Shown piece after piece: positions 1 through 6,917 of a DNA stretch of 6,936 nt. Position numbers and translations under genes: made by a program. The notes beneath the pieces are model-generated. The model was not told where the DNA came from and did no database searches. It saw only the letters and a list, made by a program, of their open reading frames with translations. The DNA lies in contig JAEOSH010000074.1 of the NCBI GenBank assembly GCA_016840465.1, positions 1-6,936 of the forward strand, given 5' to 3'. How positions within the stretch are numbered: position 1 is the stretch's first letter; each line of letters opens with the position of its first letter. The DNA is from Candidatus Baldrarchaeum yapensis (lineage in GTDB: Archaea > Asgardarchaeota > Baldrarchaeia > Baldrarchaeales > Baldrarchaeaceae).

Positions 1-540
1 GTAGCCCAGCGTGAGAACCATGGACCCCGGAGACTCCACCGAGACCTCGGAAAATACGTCTTCCTGAAAACTCTCCCAGCGCCCCTCCCTTTTCTCATCA
101 CTAATGGCGATGGTAATTGATCCCTTCTTCCCGCGTATCCGTATTGTGATCGGGAGTTCCGGGTTATTGGCGAGATCCCCTATCTTGGATACCCCGAACA
201 CCTTCCTCACGGCATCCGAGATAGAATCGGCCCACGCGTCCGGAAACTCTTCCACCAACGACCTTAAGATATGCATCATCTCCCCCGGCGGCGCAATTCC
301 CCTCCTGAGACTCTCCACCGCCCTCTCTAGCATTTCCCTTCCACATCTCCCCGCGACCCTAGCCAACCATACGCTCGCCGCGGGGAGTGTCCGCAGAAGA
401 GTCCACAGTAGATACATAACCATAGACTTCCCGGTGGAGTTCCTCCCCACGAACACCGTTAGCGGTTTCACATCCACGGAGAAATCCCTGAAGGGGCCAA
501 AATTCGAAACCCCAACTGAAATTGAAATGCGATCCGGCAT
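1..540 (-). CDS. AAA/ABC-type P-loop ATPase (AAA_15/AAA_21-like, defence-associated 'predicted ATPase'), N-terminal 180 aa, runs off the window edge
   Basis: Manual translation from ATG 540: MPDRISISVGVSNFGPFRDFSVDVKPLTVFVGRNSTGKSMVMYLLWTLL..., open to base 1. Walker A GRNSTGKS preceded by the typical 'NFGPF...LTVFVG' N-terminus. SD GTGAGGTG at 553-546. Missing from the ORF track because it has no stop inside the window. Confidence 0.88.
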   Translation of the reverse strand, partial: MPDRISISVGVSNFGPFRDFSVDVKPLTVFVGRNSTGKSMVMYLLWTLLRTLPAASVWLARVAGRCGREMLERAVESLRRGIAPPGEMMHILRSLVEEFPDAWADSISDAVRKVFGVSKIGDLANNPELPITIRIRGKKGSITIAISDEKREGRWESFQEDVFSEVSVESPGSMVLTLGY

Positions 541-545
541 CCGTG

Positions 546-596
546 CACCTCACGGACGCTCTATCTGTGTAGCGGGGCGCCGAAATAAATACTTAA
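546..596 (-). promoter_or_regulatory. SD (GTGAGGTG, 553-546) and AT-rich TATA-like element (TTAAGTATTTATTT, 596-583) for the ATPase gene
   Basis: Motifs read directly, at plausible spacing from ATG 540; function inferred. Confidence 0.5.
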
Positions 597-708
597 CGGT
601 GAGGAACATCCAAATGCCACACCGCAAGAACCGGGGCGAAAAGAGAACCCGAACGGGAATGCCCGTATTTGAATTTCACGCATGAAACACTGGGAGGATG
701 CCGATAAT

Positions 709-722
709 TTTATGATCATAAA
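709..722. repeat. Perfect 14-bp palindrome TTTATGATCATAAA, operator-like
   Basis: Self-complementary, immediately upstream of SD GGAGGT (724-729) and ATG 734. Confidence 0.5.
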
Positions 723-733
723 CGGAGGTCTCG

Positions 734-1721
734 ATGGAAGTTTTGAGAGCAAAGCGGTTCCGAATTGGAATTCATAAAATACCCGAGCGAAAGATGCCCC
801 TACAGATGGGAGTACTTCCCAGCAGTTTCCCTAGCTAGTGCTAGGAGGTTCGATATTGGCAGTTCGAAGCGGGCTCTTATCACGCGTTAAGTACGAGTTA
901 GCTGCGAATGTGAGTTTTTTGGCAAAAGGCATTCTTTTGGTGGGCTTCCCAAGCTAAAAATGTTTAAGTAAAATGATTGGGCGTTTTCTAATATCGACGC
1001 ATAAGGGAAGGTTCGCATGCGAAGCGATGACATCTTACGTGGCAATTCTCCTTCCTCAAATGGGAATACTGTGACTATTTTAAACATCACGGAAGAATTC
1101 CTAGTCACGGTAGCTTCGCTTTTGGTTGCGTTTATTCTCTATCACGTGGACCTTCTTAAGCCCTATATCAGCAATCTCGTTTTGAAACCACTGCTGATGG
1201 GAGTTATGCTGAGTGCCGCCATCATGATGATTTCCACCATGCTGTTCTGCTTTACTCTGTAGAGATAAAGAAGGAGCTGGACTACATTACCGTGCAAAAC
1301 CTTACCCCACCCGATCGCATTAATCATCTCATTCCTAATCATCATAATTGCCGCCCTTACGGGAAGATCTCGATCGACTTTGGAGCTCTCTCCGAGCGAA
1401 TACATAGACCGGGACTACTCATTGGTTATAAAAAGAGGACCCCACAACCTCAGGAAGAAGCACTCGCTCATCACCGGAATCGCATGCCTAGAGGTATTCA
1501 CATTGCTTTTTGCATCAATTGATCCGATGTCATGCCAGAGCAATCAACTGCCATGTGCGGCCGCCGGCGCCCTGATACCTCCCGCATTGTTTCCCCTCAC
1601 TTATAGTTTTAGAGGTGACAGTGGCCATCTTGGACAGTGGGGACGCATCATTTATCCGATCGGCGGAATAAATAAAAGACATACAAAAGCCGCCATCGAA
1701 TCCATGTTAAGGAAATCTTAA
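734..1721 (+). pseudogene. Decayed gene for a multi-pass membrane protein of unknown family
   Basis: SD GGAGGT + ATG 734. One frame continues from 747 to 1721 with only five internal stops (888, 969, 1002, 1260, 1266) and joins track ORFs 1017-1262 and 1380-1721. It holds hydrophobic segments FLVTVASLLVAFILY, LLMGVMLSAAIMMISTMLFCF, PIALIISFLIIIIAAL and LITGIACLEVFTLLFA. Extent is uncertain. Confidence 0.5.
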
Positions 1722-1730
1722 CCTCATTGC

Positions 1731-1908
1731 TTACGCCATTAGGTTTTCATCCATGGTGCGCAGATCCTTTAGAATTATTATTCTGTCGTAATCAACGAAT
1801 GTAAGTACCAGCCTCTTCATTTTTCACGGGTATTCCTAGTTTTTCGGCGATTCCCTCGATGACGCCTTAATCTAAGAATCCCTCCACGAAAAATACTATT
1901 GTTCTCAT
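1731..1908 (-). pseudogene. Remnant of a TOPRIM-like (OLD/DUF4276-type) ATPase-partner nuclease gene
   Basis: ATG 1908: MRTIVFFVEGFLD*GVIEGIAEKLGIPVKNEEAGTYIR*, then after a frameshift YDRIIILKDLRTMDENLMA* (1790-1731). The 'hhhVEGxxD' and 'YDxIIILxD' strands match the two TOPRIM acidic motifs. Confidence 0.6.
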
Positions 1909-2039
1909 TTCATGAGCTTCCAAATAGACATAAAGATTCTCTCATGACGTTACAATGCCGTATTCTTTTGATTTCTTACTTATTGAGTTCGAAAAGTTTT
2001 AGAAATTGAGAGAAAATCGAAAAGCGAGAACACAGACAA

Positions 2040-2079
2040 TTTATTAATCGGCACTCACTCTATTTACAAGAGCGGGAGG
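2040..2079 (+). promoter_or_regulatory. TATA-like box TTTATTAA (2040-2047) and SD GGGAGG (2074-2079) for the CARF/ring nuclease gene
   Basis: Motifs read directly upstream of ATG 2081; function inferred. Confidence 0.45.
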
Positions 2080-2080
2080 G

Positions 2081-2863
2081 ATGAGCATGAGTTTTCAAAT
2101 AGGGGTTCTCGCAACTATGGGGACCAGCCCGCCTATCATCACGGAGTTTCTCCAGTACCTCGAACTGAAGGGGATCGTGCCCCATAACATCATCCTCATC
2201 TCAACGAGGGACAAAACGGTGAGGGAGAGCACTCTCTTCGCAAGGGCCGCGATCAGAAACAGGTACAGGAAGACGAGAGTGTCCATACGGGAGGTCGATG
2301 TGGAGGACGTTGATACCGAAGAGAAGCTATTCAAATTCCTAGAGGACGCAACGGAGGTCATGTGGAGAGCGAGAGTCAACAACCACATCCTCTATGTGAA
2401 CATAGCTGGCGGGAGAATGACAATGGCGATGTCGGTTGCCCTCCTCGCTCAGATGATAGGCGTCAACGGAGTGTACCATGTTATAATGCCGGATGTCAAG
2501 ACCTTCAACATAAAACTCGAGAGGATAAGGAAGGAGATCGAGGACCTTGCAAAACTCAAGGATGAAAAGGAACAGGTGGAGTTCTACGCCAAGAATAAGA
2601 AGATATTCGATGATGTGATGTTCCCACCACCGTCAGAGTACAATGTCATAAGATTACCGCTCCTGCCCATGCCTAGAGACGTACTCGTCAAAATCGCAAG
2701 AATGCTCTCTGATGTCAAGGCAAAGATAGACCCCGCCCTTCCCAAGGACATCCTCGAGCACCTCGAAATGTCGGGAATAATAAAGAGGGCAAAGGATCTG
2801 GCATACGTCACCGAATTCGGAAGAAAAATAGGAGCGGTTCTCAAAAGCGTCCTCATGATTTAG
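2081..2863 (+). CDS. csx14: CRISPR-associated CARF protein of the Csx14/NE0113/Crn1 ring-nuclease type with a C-terminal wHTH-like region
   Basis: N-terminal ATMGTSPPIITE (family motif ATLGTSP), strand IILISTRD, LYVNIAGGRMTMA (family NxxGGRK), 'VIRLPLLP' at the end of the CARF part, and a C-terminal LEMSGII...YVTEFGRK wing-like motif. Confidence 0.8.
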   Translation: MSMSFQIGVLATMGTSPPIITEFLQYLELKGIVPHNIILISTRDKTVRESTLFARAAIRNRYRKTRVSIREVDVEDVDTEEKLFKFLEDATEVMWRARVNNHILYVNIAGGRMTMAMSVALLAQMIGVNGVYHVIMPDVKTFNIKLERIRKEIEDLAKLKDEKEQVEFYAKNKKIFDDVMFPPPSEYNVIRLPLLPMPRDVLVKIARMLSDVKAKIDPALPKDILEHLEMSGIIKRAKDLAYVTEFGRKIGAVLKSVLMI

Positions 2864-2870
2864 CAAAATG

Positions 2871-3161
2871 CTAGAAGATCAGACCCTCCTCCACCTTCTT
2901 CTTTTCCAGAACCTTTTCTTTCGTCGAGATATGTACCATTCTCTCAAGATCCGCCTTGCATAGCGGTATGAACAAAACGTCCGCTTCCGTCTTGGCAATT
3001 GCATCCGCAATCTCCCTCTTGAGAATCTGCAACCGCGCCTCGCTCAAATCTATCAGAAACGCCGATCTCTGAATCCACTCCCCTCCCCAGTCCCTCAGAA
3101 GTTCACGAACCTCGTTCCGCACGCGGTCGTCCCTCACATCATAGACAACTAGGTAAAGCAT
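2871..3161 (-). CDS. cas2: CRISPR-associated endoribonuclease Cas2 (copy b)
   Basis: 96 aa, MLYLVVYDVRDDRVRNEV...WIQRSAF; classic Cas2 'VxYD' and 'QxSxF' motifs. SD GGGGTGAGGG just upstream. Confidence 0.92.
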   Translation of the reverse strand: MLYLVVYDVRDDRVRNEVRELLRDWGGEWIQRSAFLIDLSEARLQILKREIADAIAKTEADVLFIPLCKADLERMVHISTKEKVLEKKKVEEGLIF

Positions 3162-3165
3162 TCCC

Positions 3166-3582
3166 TCACCCCGTTTTTCCTATCCAGACCCTTCTTACAT
3201 TCTCAATCCCATCGAAATCGGTATCCTCGCTTATGATAATCTCTATGTTATTCCTCCTGCAGACGGCAATGTGCAGGGCGTCTGAGGGCTTCAGCCCGTA
3301 CTTCTCGATAACCACCCTCATGACCTTGAACTCCTCATCCCCTATCGGCAGGATCCTCACAAAGGGCAACACCACGTCGTCCAGAAGCTCCATCGTCACC
3401 TCATAGGGAACTCCGTACTTCTTCTTGGAAATGTAGAGGACCTCGTCCAGGACAAGCGCATCCGTGAAGAGAACGTACCTCTCGAGAACGTCCATGAAGA
3501 AGTCCTCATAGACGCGACGCGCGCCCTCCTCCCTGACCGTGTTCAGATAGATTATGAGGTTAGCGTCGAGAAACGCCCTCAT
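3166..3582 (-). CDS. vapC: VapC-type PIN-domain toxin
   Basis: RAFLDANLIIY...LVLDEVLY...LKPSDALHIAV...IISEDTDFDGI shows the full PIN acidic motif set. ATG 3582 preferred over TTG 3588. Overlaps the antitoxin 3' end. Confidence 0.93.
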   Translation of the reverse strand: MRAFLDANLIIYLNTVREEGARRVYEDFFMDVLERYVLFTDALVLDEVLYISKKKYGVPYEVTMELLDDVVLPFVRILPIGDEEFKVMRVVIEKYGLKPSDALHIAVCRRNNIEIIISEDTDFDGIENVRRVWIGKTG

Positions 3583-3844
3583 CCTCAAACTCCTCTTCCA
3601 AATAAACTCCAGCGAGTTCCTCCGGCCTGGGACCCACTATCCCCAACTTCTCAAGCCTCTTCCTGTGCTCCTCCAACTTCCTCAAAACCTGCGCCCTATC
3701 CACCCTCCTGATCGGCTTGAGGAGAATGCCGTCGCTCCTGAGCTCTACGGCAACGTAGTCCCCCTCCGAGATTCCGTACGCCTCCCTCACAGACTTCGGA
3801 ATCACAATGTAGCCCTTGGCACCCACCTTCAACCTCAGCGTCAT
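3560..3844 (-). CDS. vapB: AbrB/MazE/SpoVT-family antitoxin (VapB)
   Basis: LKVGAKGYIVIPKSVREAYGISEGDYVAVELRSDGILLKP is a swapped-hairpin AbrB signature, with an acidic C-terminal tail. ATG 3844 follows SD GGTGGTGA (track start 3862). Confidence 0.9.
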   Translation of the reverse strand: MTLRLKVGAKGYIVIPKSVREAYGISEGDYVAVELRSDGILLKPIRRVDRAQVLRKLEEHRKRLEKLGIVGPRPEELAGVYLEEEFEDEGVSRR

Positions 3845-3890
3845 ACTCACCACCCACTCCAACTATAGTCAAACCATTCCAACTTTACAT

Positions 3891-3929
3891 GTCGCCATTT
3901 CCAAAAATAAATTTACACATCGTGGCGAC
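3891..3929 (-). promoter_or_regulatory. vapBC promoter: AT-rich core flanked by a 7-bp inverted repeat (GTCGCCA 3891-3897 / TGGCGAC 3923-3929)
   Basis: The repeat and the GTAAATTTATTTTT core are read directly. Autoregulatory operator role inferred from type II TA biology. Confidence 0.5.
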
Positions 3930-3932
3930 CCC

Positions 3933-4208
3933 TCACCCGATGTTCCAGTCGACGAGATCCGAGACCCTCGTGGAAATGTGGGAAACCTTGCTGTAACATT
4001 TTGCACACGGGAAGACCACCCTCACATCCCCAGTTCCCCTCCTCACGATCCTCCTTATCCCCCTGAGAAGTTTCTCCACATCCTCCTCCCTGATGTCAAG
4101 TTCAAACACGCTGTACTGCCGCCACTCCCCTCCCCAGTCCTTAAGATACTCACGAAGTTCGTTCCGGATGTCGTCCTCCGATATGTCATAAATGACGAAG
4201 ACCTTCAT
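3933..4208 (-). CDS. cas2: CRISPR-associated endoribonuclease Cas2 (copy a)
   Basis: MKVFVIYDISEDDIRNELREYLKDWGGEWRQYSVFELDI...PCAKC. True start is probably ATG 4208, which overlaps the cas4 stop (ATGA); track start 4241. Confidence 0.93.
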   Translation of the reverse strand: MKVFVIYDISEDDIRNELREYLKDWGGEWRQYSVFELDIREEDVEKLLRGIRRIVRRGTGDVRVVFPCAKCYSKVSHISTRVSDLVDWNIG

Positions 4209-4978
4209 ACCCTCACCCCACGGGGAACTATTAGACGACACAGCACCCTGACATCACAAAACTCGCACCTCCTCCTCCTCCTCCTCTCAGCCCTGACCGA
4301 TATCCCCGTAAAGAGAACCCTCAGAGCGTCATCACGGGCCCTCAGGGCGCGCTCCCTCAAACATTCTCCTATCTCGACCTCCATCCTCTTCCCCCTCCTC
4401 AGATCCTCCACATAACCGACATCCACATCAACCCCCATGCGATCCTCCATCAGAAGCGCGTAAAGGGCCAGTTGCACCATCTCCGGATCACCCGGCTCCC
4501 GACTCATGTACTTGAACTCCACCGGAACCCCCTCCTCCACGGAGTCTATAACTCCCACCAGCGACAACCTCTCCGACCTGAGCGGAACCTCGAAATCCGC
4601 GCTCCGCGGAACCCCGTACTCGTCCAAAACTTTGGAAAAACCCTCGAAAACCTCCCGAACAATCTCCTCCACCTCCAACCTCGAAAGGGGGGGACTGAAC
4701 CTCGGAAGAAGATCCCCAACCACCCTCTCGATCACCACCTCAGTGCCCATCTCCCTCATTCTACCCGTCACTATAATCCTCCCAAACTCCACCCTCGCCT
4801 CGTGCGCAACCTTCCCGCGTAGCATCTGTGGTGTCATCTCAACCTTATGGGGGTACCTCCTTAAAAGAAGAGCATAAACCGGACAGTAAACAAATGCGTA
4901 AACGTCGCGAATTCTGAGGACTACAGACCTCACCGGGGAACTTGCATCCACAGAGTATCCGCGAATAATCCGACCCAT
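4205..4978 (-). CDS. cas4: Cas4-family RecB-like Fe-S exonuclease with Csa1/Cas4a-like length and N-terminus
   Basis: YCP plus C-terminal CEFC-x5-C (4 Cys); motifs G-x-x-x-H (GKVAH), G-x-I-D, E-F-K and QLALY intact. ATG 4978 follows SD GTGAGG; GTG 4987 is an alternative start. Confidence 0.9.
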   Translation of the reverse strand: MGRIIRGYSVDASSPVRSVVLRIRDVYAFVYCPVYALLLRRYPHKVEMTPQMLRGKVAHEARVEFGRIIVTGRMREMGTEVVIERVVGDLLPRFSPPLSRLEVEEIVREVFEGFSKVLDEYGVPRSADFEVPLRSERLSLVGVIDSVEEGVPVEFKYMSREPGDPEMVQLALYALLMEDRMGVDVDVGYVEDLRRGKRMEVEIGECLRERALRARDDALRVLFTGISVRAERRRRRRCEFCDVRVLCRLIVPRGVRV

Positions 4979-5004
4979 CGGCCTCACGCACGACCCGAGG
5001 CTTT

Positions 5005-5081
5005 AGAAACCCTCTCACGCGGCGGCATGATTGGTTCAAACCACTACTTAAAGAGCCTGCCGCCGCACCCCGAGGAGTTCT
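5005..5081 (-). other. Long GC-rich stem-loop in the region upstream of cas4 (structured 5' leader or small RNA)
   Basis: Perfect 9-bp stem 5019-5027/5058-5066, plus an outer stem 5005-5014/5072-5081 (9 of 10 pairs on the minus-strand RNA, including one G-U) and an inner 4-bp hairpin 5032-5043. Confidence 0.55.
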
Positions 5082-5117
5082 CATGACCGTTACATATAAT
5101 TTCAAAGGGCGCTTCAA

Positions 5118-5125
5118 TTTATAAA
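5118..5125. promoter_or_regulatory. Palindromic TATA box TTTATAAA between the divergent cas4 and CARF genes
   Basis: Reads the same on both strands and lies about 24 nt before ATG 5149, consistent with a leaderless transcript. Confidence 0.6.
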
Positions 5126-5148
5126 CGAGTTTTTAACAGCAAGCGGTG

Positions 5149-5688
5149 ATGCCCTTGCCACGAGCGGGGGATGGCGGGGAAAATGAGCGGTGCGTGTGGA
5201 TAACCTTTGTGGGAGTGTCACTAGCGGCAATCTGCAACACCATCTGGATGTGCTACGACCTCGACATTCTGAGACCGAACGTCTTCTACCTAATATACAA
5301 CGAAAAGACGCGAGACCTCATGTATGACGCAAGAGACCTGATATCCGAAATCTGCAAGACCTACGGAATCCCAAACCCGCAAATAGCCGGTATAAAGACA
5401 AAGGAAGACGACCTCGACCAAATATCTAGAGAGATCAGGAAAATCCTGAAATTCGAAACCAAAAAAGGATCAAGAATAGCGGTCGACCTCACACCCGGAA
5501 GGAAATACATGACTCTAATACTCGCAATCATCGCAGCACAGTTCAACGTGGACCACGCCTTCTACCTCCACCTGAAAGACCCACAATACCAGAACGAACT
5601 GTACCCCCGTATCCCCCAGCCCCTCCAAGAACTATACGACCTGAACCGCATACTGAAGGAGGGCATAGGGAGTGCCTTCAAAAAATAA
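5149..5688 (+). CDS. Stand-alone CARF-fold protein with no fused effector domain
   Basis: beta1 WITFVGVSLAAICNT, beta2 FYLIYN, and the CARF ligand-binding motif IAVDLTPGRKYMT followed by helix and HAFYLHL strand. Start may be GTG 5146, ATG 5149 or later. Confidence 0.75.
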   Translation: MPLPRAGDGGENERCVWITFVGVSLAAICNTIWMCYDLDILRPNVFYLIYNEKTRDLMYDARDLISEICKTYGIPNPQIAGIKTKEDDLDQISREIRKILKFETKKGSRIAVDLTPGRKYMTLILAIIAAQFNVDHAFYLHLKDPQYQNELYPRIPQPLQELYDLNRILKEGIGSAFKK

Positions 5689-6865
5689 ATACGAGCACGA
5701 GTTCATCTCCGAAGAGAACATGACCGTCCTAGTAAATCAGTTGTTCAAAATAGGAACTACGATCCTCGTGAACATCCCCAGTTGCGACACCGATCCCGCC
5801 ATCACAATCGATCTCGATCTCCAAGAAATGACCCTCCACATTACCGAGAACTCTCTCAAGCACCCCCTCATAGTGGACGAAATAAGGATATCAATCGTCA
5901 GATCCGGGTTGATACCCCCACAAAACCTCTCCAACCTTGAAAAATTGCTAAAAGAGCATTACGAGTTCCACAAACTCGTAATGCTATCCCCGTGCATACC
6001 AATCGCTCTCGACACGGGCTCCCTAATAAGGGGAATCCCCACCCTGATAAGAGAACTCCTCGCAGAACTTGCAACATACATCATCTTCATAGAGCCGCAA
6101 ACCGTGAAAGACGAACTCGACAGAATGCTGAAAAATGGAAAGTGGTCGTCACGTCTCGCACTCCTCGCAATCACCGAACTGAACCGCATACCTAACCTCA
6201 TACTCTCAAGAATCACAAACATCCCCAACCACGCCGAGGACTCCGACTCCAAAATCCTCGAGGAACTCAAAATACTCGCTAAAGACCTCCCCCATCTCAC
6301 CTTCCTAACAATGGACAAGAACCTCGCAATAAGAGTGGCCAAAGAGAACATAAGATCCGTGTTCCTAGATCAACCCGTACTACACGACTCCTTTAAAATA
6401 AAAGGTCATGACCCCGGAAGATGGGTGAAAAACATCTCGAGATTCCTCCACACACTCGCAATCGCCGCCGGCACCATATCAATATCTTGCGCCGACGAAA
6501 CCATCACCCTCAACGGAGTATGGTCCGGCAAAAAACCAGAACACTGGCACAAAAACTTAATCCGCATTCTCATACCGTCTGGCTCCAAAATACTACCACC
6601 CCTCAGAAGACACCTGTCGATCCTGCAAAAAGCATCCGACCGCGCGAAAAGCCGCTATAAGAAAACCATCGAACCAATAACAGGCCCCCTCCTCACAACC
6701 AGGGAAGCCGCCTGCCTGCTACGCGTAACTCCATCAACTATACGAAGATGGATAAAGATGGGAAAAATAAGGGCCATCCGCCCCACAGATAGAAGACTTC
6801 TCATCCCCAGCGAGGAAATTTGGAAGCTAATGTCCCCAGAAAACTCAATGAAAGAAAACCACTGA
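5672..6865 (+). CDS. PIN-domain nuclease with N- and C-terminal extensions, fused to a C-terminal MerR/excisionase-like (HTH_17-type) HTH
   Basis: PIN acidic set D114 (IALDTG), E148 (VKDEL), D192 (DSDSKILEE), D215 (FLTMDKNLA). C-terminal LLTTREAACLLRVTPSTIRRWIKMGKIRAIR. GTG start with SD GGAGG (5658-5662) and a 17-nt overlap with the CARF gene. Confidence 0.8.
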   Translation: MPSKNKYEHEFISEENMTVLVNQLFKIGTTILVNIPSCDTDPAITIDLDLQEMTLHITENSLKHPLIVDEIRISIVRSGLIPPQNLSNLEKLLKEHYEFHKLVMLSPCIPIALDTGSLIRGIPTLIRELLAELATYIIFIEPQTVKDELDRMLKNGKWSSRLALLAITELNRIPNLILSRITNIPNHAEDSDSKILEELKILAKDLPHLTFLTMDKNLAIRVAKENIRSVFLDQPVLHDSFKIKGHDPGRWVKNISRFLHTLAIAAGTISISCADETITLNGVWSGKKPEHWHKNLIRILIPSGSKILPPLRRHLSILQKASDRAKSRYKKTIEPITGPLLTTREAACLLRVTPSTIRRWIKMGKIRAIRPTDRRLLIPSEEIWKLMSPENSMKENH

Positions 6866-6917
6866 CCCCTTACACCCCCAATCTTTATATTATGCTACCA
6901 CAAGACATTATCGGGGG

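Follow-up and report, generated by a model that had tools for sequence, protein, structure and literature searches.

The window analysed here is the whole of contig JAEOSH010000074.1 from the Asgard archaeon Candidatus Baldrarchaeum yapensis (6,936 nucleotides (nt), forward strand), and it contains on its + strand two overlapping open reading frames (ORFs), 5149-5688 and 5672-6865, which are called gene A and gene B in the following. Their products correspond, one after the other, to the CARF and PIN parts of proteins that carry both in a single chain. We consider it probable (about 0.7) that A and B together form an ancillary effector of the CARF-PIN type, split into two subunits, which serves cyclic oligoadenylate (cOA) signalling as found in type III CRISPR systems. 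The initial annotation of the window had likewise suggested that the sensor and the nuclease effector are separate chains encoded by coupled genes, and this idea is supported by the CARF fold of A, the tiling of both proteins onto a fused homologue, the conservation of the pair in relatives and a predicted complex.

The two genes and the fused protein onto which they tile

The pair, its signals and the domains of gene B are located as follows.

5149-5688, + strand: gene A, stand-alone CARF protein of the family CARF_m1, proposed sensor subunit; 179 amino acids (aa), ATG at 5149, TAA at 5686-5688
5672-6865, + strand: gene B; 397 aa, GTG at 5672, TGA at 6863-6865
5672-5688, + strand: 17-nt overlap of A and B, translational coupling; from the ORFs and the sequence
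5118-5125, + strand: TATA-box-like TTTATAAA, 23 nt 5' of the ATG of gene A; by sequence inspection
5658-5663, + strand: Shine-Dalgarno-like GGAGGG, 8 nt 5' of the GTG of gene B and within the 3' end of gene A
5672-5986, + strand: gene B residues 1-105, conserved adaptor domain at the N-terminus with an LxxLLNxL helix; docking on A is predicted
5987-6391, + strand: gene B residues ~106-240, PIN nuclease domain carrying the acidic tetrad D114, E148, D192 and D215
6392-6667, + strand: gene B residues ~241-332, conserved C-terminal domain with W284-x-G286-K287 and a long terminal helix
6689-6832, + strand: gene B residues 340-387, helix-turn-helix (HTH) tail of the excisionase/MerR type (HTH_17)

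Gene A matches the PADLOC model CARF_m1--CARF (PDLC01972) with an E-value of 3.4e-30 over positions 2-144 of 145. Within the fused model CARF_m1--CARF_PIN (PDLC01973), it covers positions 3-148 and gene B covers positions 164-453; gene B additionally covers positions 132-357 of the 'CARF+PIN' model PDLC01068. The same two matches, of A and of B to CARF_m1 models, are returned by a profile search of the organism's own genome, and Pfam and NCBIfam alone give only borderline CARF and PIN matches for the pair. The name CARF_m1 stands here for the PADLOC models PDLC01971-01973, which we take to derive from the 2020 CARF classification of Makarova et al. When the A-family and B-family profiles are compared by sequence with the Protein Data Bank (PDB), both match the same chain, SiRe_0806, a 429-aa 'PIN domain-containing protein' from Sulfolobus islandicus, which has been solved in its apo form (PDB ID: 9jxw) and, according to the entry title, with cyclic tetra-adenylate (cA4; PDB ID: 9jxx). 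Since both proteins tile the fused model as well as SiRe_0806, A and B can be regarded as the two halves of a CARF-PIN protein.

The AlphaFold2 (AF2) model of gene A, with a predicted local distance difference test score (pLDDT) of 89, is a Rossmann-like CARF fold. The 50 structural matches listed for it are CARF domains of known effectors and ring nucleases (Z 12.4-16.2). The top match is the ring nuclease Sis0811 (Z 16.2, root-mean-square deviation (rmsd) 2.3, 140 aligned residues), and residues 1-137 of SiRe_0806 are matched with Z 15.7 and rmsd 2.1 over 137 aligned residues. The two motifs which define the ligand site of CARF proteins, G-x-S/T (following strand 1) and D/N-x-S/T-x-x-x-R/K (following strand 4), are present as G22-V23-S24 and D113-L-T115-P-G-R118-K119. 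G22, D113 and T115-K119 are invariant in an alignment of 10 A-family members, and the S24 position is variable (T in the homologue L005, Q in L024). The description of gene A as a CARF fold and nothing more, with the GxS and DLTPGRK motifs intact, is thus borne out by the structural matches and by the alignment.

The same comparisons bring up the question of whether A is mainly a ring nuclease, that is, an off-switch for cOA like Crn1, Sis0455 and Sis0811, which is merely co-transcribed with a gene B controlled in some other way. The A-family profile finds its closest PDB sequences in Sis0455 (E 1.4e-7) and Sso2081/Crn1 (E 4e-6), with SiRe_0806 ranking behind them (E 1.3e-5), and the top structural match is a ring nuclease as well. 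A is also, like Crn1, a stand-alone CARF protein of around 180 aa, and the Ser of its GxS motif aligns with the Ser of the GTS motif of Crn1. This Ser is however variable in the family, and the NCBIfam model for Crn1 (NF040581) stays far below its cut-off of 125 bits for the homologue L005 (22.8 bits) and does not match the A of the window at all. In addition, A maps onto the CARF domain of fused CARF-PIN proteins, its adjacency to and overlap with B are nearly universal, and the interface predicted between the two falls on family-conserved motifs, as detailed in the following sections. Sensing and degrading are moreover compatible with each other, the CARF domains of Csm6 doing both. A main function as ring nuclease is, in our view, unlikely.

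For gene B (AF2 model with pLDDT 82.9), SiRe_0806 is the best structural match by far, with residues 3-324 of the model aligned to its residues 148-418 (Z 17.4, rmsd 3.6, 256 aligned). Residues ~106-240 are modelled as a PIN fold, with structural matches to 3i8o (Z 13.8, rmsd 3.2, 126 aligned), Nmd4 (Z 12.2) and SMG6 (Z 11.3). The B of the window misses the Pfam gathering score for both PIN_4 (16.0 vs 21.9 bits) and PIN_9 (16.7 vs 26.3 bits), and its homologues L005 and L019 pass that of PIN_4 with 32.7 and 26.9 bits, respectively. The complete acidic tetrad noticed in the initial annotation (D114, E148, D192 and D215) is invariant in the 22 sequences of the B-family alignment, as are T115, R161, I195 and W284, and G286 and K287 of the WSGK motif are nearly so. 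The N-terminal region of about 105 aa, which had been left unassigned, is in fact a conserved domain, being aligned across the 22 family members and forming part of the match to residues 148-418 of SiRe_0806. The region after the PIN domain which contains VWSGKKPEHW is indeed present and its motif conserved, and it can now be described as the conserved C-terminal domain of a SiRe_0806-type architecture, falling within the same match up to residue 418.

The HTH with which gene B had been said to end is recovered above the cut-offs of both Pfam (PF12728, residues 340-383, 36.8 vs 27 bits) and NCBIfam (TIGR01764, 38.9 vs 28.8 bits). It is absent from the other rows of the 22-member alignment and from the B-family matches of the exhaustive search, and, lacking coverage by any other alignment row, this part of the AF2 model has low confidence (pLDDT 47-74). 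The tail is relevant to the possibility that the pair is chiefly a ligand-responsive transcription regulator resembling Csa3, which would act via the HTH of B or via the winged helix-turn-helix (wHTH)-like C-terminal extension that A carries in Asgard relatives, the PIN domain having a structural or minor role. Both DNA-binding domains are in agreement with such a function, as is the weak match of A-family members to HFX_2341_N, which is a domain found in a cas repressor of haloarchaea (PMC11434293). So is a perfect 9-nt inverted repeat (GCGGCGGCA / TGCCGCCGC) found at 5019-5027 and 5058-5066, 30 nt apart in the intergenic region between cas4 and gene A, which is a possible operator or RNA hairpin. 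It has no counterpart in the promoter of A2, the first gene of a second, tandem pair beyond the contig end, and since the promoter regions of the two pairs share no 7- or 8-mers, no operator could be proposed for the HTH of gene B. Against a chiefly regulatory function, it can be noted that the 22 divergent members, most of which are without any DNA-binding domain, all retain the four acidic residues of the PIN domain and other motifs, and that the HTH is unique to this copy. We regard it as very improbable.

The 17-nt overlap behind a single TATA box, as first described, was confirmed from the ORFs and the sequence. The two ORFs are in different reading frames, and that of gene A is, according to the ORF list, also open from 5146 (180 aa). 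The spacing of TTTATAAA to the ATG of gene A is consistent with a leaderless archaeal start, and no terminator-like site was found on the + strand between A and B. Gene B is considered to start at the GTG at 5672 since its homologues align from approximately residue 5 (the family N-termini align with residues 5-25); an internal ATG at codon 17 was rejected as start, the homologues aligning 5' of it. On three near-identical metagenome contigs, the called genes likewise encode products of 179 and 397 aa and have the same overlap. A frameshift or sequencing error was also considered as the origin of the split and rejected, as the split recurs in three assemblies and in dozens of distant loci; the C-terminal wHTH-like extension that some A genes have of their own is a further point against such an origin.

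Conservation of the pair and its linkage to type III CRISPR loci

Both proteins first looked orphan because word-based searches found almost nothing, the k-mer protein searches returning one relative for B and two for A. Exhaustive and genome searches yielded B relatives of ~350-400 aa, each of them with a small CARF_m1-like gene directly upstream. A search seeded with the A-family alignment alone resulted in a set of 38 loci, which belong to Methanosarcinales, Methanoperedens, Archaeoglobaceae, Hydrothermarchaeota, Thermoplasmatota, haloarchaea, several Asgard classes and one Desulfurobacteriaceae bacterium. A separate B gene is found directly downstream and on the same strand in 36 of them, the remaining two being a 702-aa fusion and a contig which ends after A, so that the co-occurrence of the two genes, which the initial annotation had proposed to survey, is a general property of the set. 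Where the junction could be evaluated (34 loci), the start of B overlaps the stop of A in 23 cases, 14 of which are of the 4-nt ATGA type, and lies 0-30 nt past it in 10. Considering this overlap or closeness across loci, translational coupling is a trait of the family.

A few loci of the set deserve separate mention. In L072 (2289-3294) the B gene is broken into two frames and in L063 (10732-11559) it is without its N-terminal domain; both are possibly pseudogenes or assembly errors. The metagenome-assembled genome (MAG) of a Desulfurobacteriaceae bacterium (L057) provides the only bacterial locus with the pair among the 38. Its B groups with that of an uncultured archaeon (L048) with strong support, which suggests horizontal transfer.

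Fused forms were sampled by a profile search with PDLC01973 across 300 genomes of the phylum, and the CARF_m1-PIN family was found in 34 of these, in fused as well as split versions. One genome (G400, contigs C16 and C48) carries both, namely a fused gene (502-aa frame, E 9e-144) and a split pair in which the two genes are in the same frame and separated by one TGA. In the tree built on the B part, fused forms appear in at least three places, and one fused group is nested within a split clade with strong support. Such repeated fission and fusion indicates that the modules are functionally interchangeable as one chain or two.

In 11 loci from Methanosarcinales and Methanoperedens, the pair lies inside a type III-D-like cas operon with the order Cas10-Csm3-Cas5(IIId)/Csx10-x-Csm2-Csm3-Csm3-A-B-Csx1(CARF-HEPN)-Cas1, where x is an unassigned gene. 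Hidden Markov models built on the genes of these operons give RAMP matches within 10 kb of the pair in 13 of the 38 loci, and 12 of the 13 have a Cas10 match as well. In other loci the neighbours are CARF effectors (CARF7-RelE, CARF5, Csx1, CARF_m5 and CARF3). The context is different for a subgroup of Asgard relatives (L070, L071 and L074, from Promethearchaeota, as well as L015-L018), in which A is 280-310 aa long and carries the wHTH-like domain at its C-terminus; there, a Csa3/CARF3-like gene lies ahead of the pair, and in place of cas genes a MkoA-like helicase (863-918 aa) comes after it. This arrangement may be CRISPR-independent.

A linkage to cas10, which the initial annotation had proposed to survey, is seen in relatives (12 of 38 loci with a Cas10 match) and is not seen in the organism's own MAG (2.27 Mb in 100 contigs, 96% complete), in which neither Cas10 (PDLC00919, PDLC00917, PDLC01444) nor RAMP (PF03787) is matched, and consequently no signal source is visible for this copy. 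This may be an assembly gap, CRISPR islands often being lost from MAGs; a genome of the same order (G001) does carry RAMP genes, within a class that holds five species genomes only. The pair could alternatively be an orphan remnant without a working signal pathway in this organism, for which the missing Cas10 and RAMP matches speak together with a locus that holds only adaptation genes and other defence genes. Both frames are nevertheless intact and keep every family-invariant residue, a second intact paralogous pair adjoins, the same intact genes are present in three independent metagenome assemblies, and the MAG is fragmented. It is thus hardly likely that the pair is a mere remnant.

Predicted complex and proposed mechanism

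One complex prediction was made, for A and residues 1-330 of gene B with custom alignments. It reached a score of 0.82, compared to 0.00 for the best of three controls, so that the A:B complex suggested with the initial annotation is indeed predicted. Among solved complexes, 58 of 80 attain a mark of 0.82, compared to 2 of 110 among mismatched pairs; these counts hold only roughly given the custom alignments. The three prediction runs share at least 98% of their contacts, with a partner pLDDT of at least 85. On the B side, the predicted interface is made up of the LxxLLNxL helix (residues 15-26), residues 248-253 and the terminal helix (residues 310-328), and on the A side of residues 33, 37, 60-72 and 143-159 (the conserved YLHL..YQ..P.P segment), and it falls on family-conserved motifs of both proteins. 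The prediction indicates likeness to a known arrangement and is not proof of binding.

The location of this interface is also of interest for another explanation, in which the pair resembles a toxin-antitoxin system: A would keep the PIN domain of B inactive, and the ligand or the loss of A would free active B. PIN toxins are typically neutralised by the product of an upstream overlapping gene, the order and coupling of A and B resemble those of vapBC (a true vapBC pair is located 1.3 kb away), and a DNA-binding domain is found on one or the other partner in different relatives, as is the case in toxin-antitoxin autoregulation. On the other hand, the contacts predicted for B are situated away from the region of the catalytic tetrad, A has neither a VapB-like fold nor a VapB-like tail, and the modules are covalently joined in the fused relatives, so that release cannot be the ancestral mechanism. 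An antitoxin role of A is accordingly rather improbable. The initial annotation had included release of the nuclease, or a ligand-gated antitoxin, among its options, and these are less likely than a permanent complex of the A2B2 type, because the modules work as one covalent chain in relatives.

For a split CARF-PIN effector, the following mechanism can be proposed. A and B would be translated in a constant ratio from a shared leaderless transcript on which the two genes are translationally coupled. As in other CARF proteins, A would dimerise and bind a cyclic oligoadenylate at the dimer face, the ligand being most likely cA4 if the PDB entry 9jxx can serve as guide. The N-terminal and C-terminal helices of B are predicted to pack on helix 60-72 and on the YLHL..YQ..P.P segment of A, which would give a stable, constitutive complex. 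Once the ligand is bound to A, the PIN nuclease of B, probably an RNase, would be activated through the interface, as in single-chain CARF effectors. The HTH_17 tail would probably add DNA binding, for autoregulation or for tethering. Of this picture, the analysis shows the folds, the tiling onto a fused protein, the conserved pairing with its overlap and the type III linkage in relatives, while the complex, its ligand, its activation, its substrate and the function of the HTH are inferred.

Several points weigh against this reading. The best PDB sequence matches of the A family are ring nucleases. The B of the window lacks an insertion of ~45 residues which is found in the PIN domain of nearly all homologues, between E148 and R161 (B residues ~148-163, window 6113-6160). 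Several Asgard relatives adjoin the helicase instead of cas genes, and no Cas10 or RAMP was matched in the organism's own MAG. The complex score may reflect memory, because the structure of a fused homologue has been solved. As to biochemistry, ST0035, a fused CARF-PIN protein, showed weak cross-linking to cA4 and no induction of RNase activity (PMC6546367), which was the only work on CARF-PIN activity found in the literature search, and a paper on the activity of SiRe_0806 was not found in it.

Surrounding locus and relation to known systems

The other features of the window are listed below.

1-540, - strand: AAA_15 ATPase, cut by the contig edge
2081-2863, + strand: second, different CARF protein, of the CARF5 family, 260 aa (PDLC01906 E 2e-68; Cas_NE0113 E 6.5e-22)
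2871-4987, - strand: cas2, vapC (PIN), vapB (AbrB/MazE), cas2 and cas4, divergent from gene A (Pfam)
6884-6891, + strand: TATA-like TTTATATT before a second CARF_m1 gene cut by the contig end
6918-6936, no strand: adapter sequence CTGTCTCTTATACACATCT at the contig end, 19 nt, assembly artefact

The approximately 1.5 kb between the ATPase and the CARF5 gene (541-2080) contain no convincing ORF, and their sole feature is an imperfect inverted repeat of 21 nt (1212-1232 and 1337-1357). No CRISPR-like repeats were found in the window between 500 and 2100, and no Rfam family was found anywhere in it. The AbrB-VapC pair at 3166-3862 is a genuine one. It is flanked by two cas2 genes (96 and 102 aa; 2871-4241), which is an unusual interleaving of adaptation and toxin-antitoxin genes.

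The metagenome contig L079 (13.3 kb) matches positions 1-6917 of the window with 99.88% identity and continues beyond it on both sides. The window then diverges into CTGTCTCTTATACACATCT, which is the Nextera mosaic-end adapter, and its last 19 nt are hence not part of the genome. Upstream (L079:1-4869), the longer contig encodes the C-terminal PIWI part of a prokaryotic Argonaute (pAgo), a 274-aa protein with a weak match to HVO_A0261_N, Cas1, a divergent Cas1-like protein (282 aa) and the full-length AAA_15/AriA-like ATPase (460 aa). No effector cas genes were seen in this upstream part. Downstream, beyond the end of the window, it holds the second tandem pair, A2 (L079:11253-11747) and B2 (11744-12805), with an overlap of 4 nt. 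A2 (164 aa) shares 43% identity with A, and B2 (353 aa), which shares 28% identity with B, retains the PIN tetrad and has no HTH. The tandem pairs are explained by a lineage-specific duplication, as B and B2 are sisters in the tree. Both L079 and L081 end ~23 nt past B2.

The tandem arrangement allows for a more far-reaching explanation, according to which the split itself is functional and a free CARF subunit is shared or exchanged between paralogous PIN subunits. The A1-B1(HTH) and A2-B2 pairs could then cross-assemble, the module could function without a type III system nearby, for example by sensing another nucleotide signal, and the HTH of B1 would couple sensing to RNA cleavage and to the transcription of the adaptation genes. 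We hold this to be doubtful. If true, an Asgard archaeon would possess a CARF signalling node that is combinatorial and independent of Cas10.

Considered as a split CARF-PIN effector, the pair can be compared with several known systems. It has the domain order of SiRe_0806 (CARF, adaptor, PIN, C-terminal domain) but differs from it in that SiRe_0806 is a single chain, has no HTH tail and shares only ~14-19% sequence identity. The pair would work like the single-chain CARF-PIN effectors SiRe_0806, ST0035 and Msed_1167, and is not itself a single-chain member. With Csx1/Csm6 (HEPN), Can1/Can2/Card1 (PD-D/ExK) and Cami1 (RelE), A shares the sensor fold and motifs, and the logic of these single-chain CARF nucleases, in which cOA on the CARF dimer activates the nuclease, is probably common to A and B as well, although here the nuclease is a PIN domain and is carried by a separate polypeptide. 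Crn1 (Sso2081), Sis0455 and Sis0811 are like A stand-alone CARF proteins of similar size, whereas A is tightly coupled to an effector gene and misses the NCBIfam cut-off for Crn1. The location of a PIN nuclease downstream of, and overlapping, a small partner gene is reminiscent of VapBC; the partner is however a CARF protein and not one of the AbrB, ribbon-helix-helix (RHH) or Phd type, B has two extra conserved domains, and fusions exist. In CalpL-CalpT-CalpS, perception and output are also spread over more than one polypeptide, namely a SAVED sensor with a Lon protease plus an anti-sigma and a sigma factor, without homology to A or B. Compared to that system, the split between A and B amounts to the fission of one effector.

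The kind of system described here is already known and catalogued, in the form of fused CARF+PIN accessories and of the CARF_m1 family. Two CARF families with PIN fusions were reported by Makarova et al. 2014 (PMC4012209), and Shah et al. 2018 listed CARF+PIN (cluster 104, with Msed_1167 and ST0035) as a type III accessory (PMC6546367), a listing which is matched by the Methanosarcinales relatives of A and B. The literature found covers the fused protein, and neither a separate PIN subunit nor an obligatory A-B gene pair is described in it. Of the novelty expected in the initial annotation, the two-chain reading therefore stands, but the novelty of the system itself does not, since fused members have been catalogued and one has been solved with cA4. 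What is new with regard to the literature found is that the two-gene form is usual across many archaeal lineages and occurs inside III-D operons, together with the HTH-tailed B subunit and the tandem pair. The split may nonetheless have been noted already in the 2020 CARF classification.

CARF-PIN proteins are among the last classes of CARF effectors without a described activity, with one cA4-bound structure and one negative RNase test in the sources found. If A and B are indeed subunits of one effector, they are otherwise an expected kind of CRISPR accessory gene and involve no new principle. The natural two-chain form, common in the type III-D operons of Methanosarcinales and in Asgard archaea, would nevertheless offer a clean system for studying how a CARF domain signals to its effector, as its interface is open to mutation and its subunits to titration or exchange, and it would also provide a route to the target of the PIN nuclease. 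DNA-binding domains have been gained repeatedly, on one subunit or the other, which is a hint that the response also has a transcriptional component.

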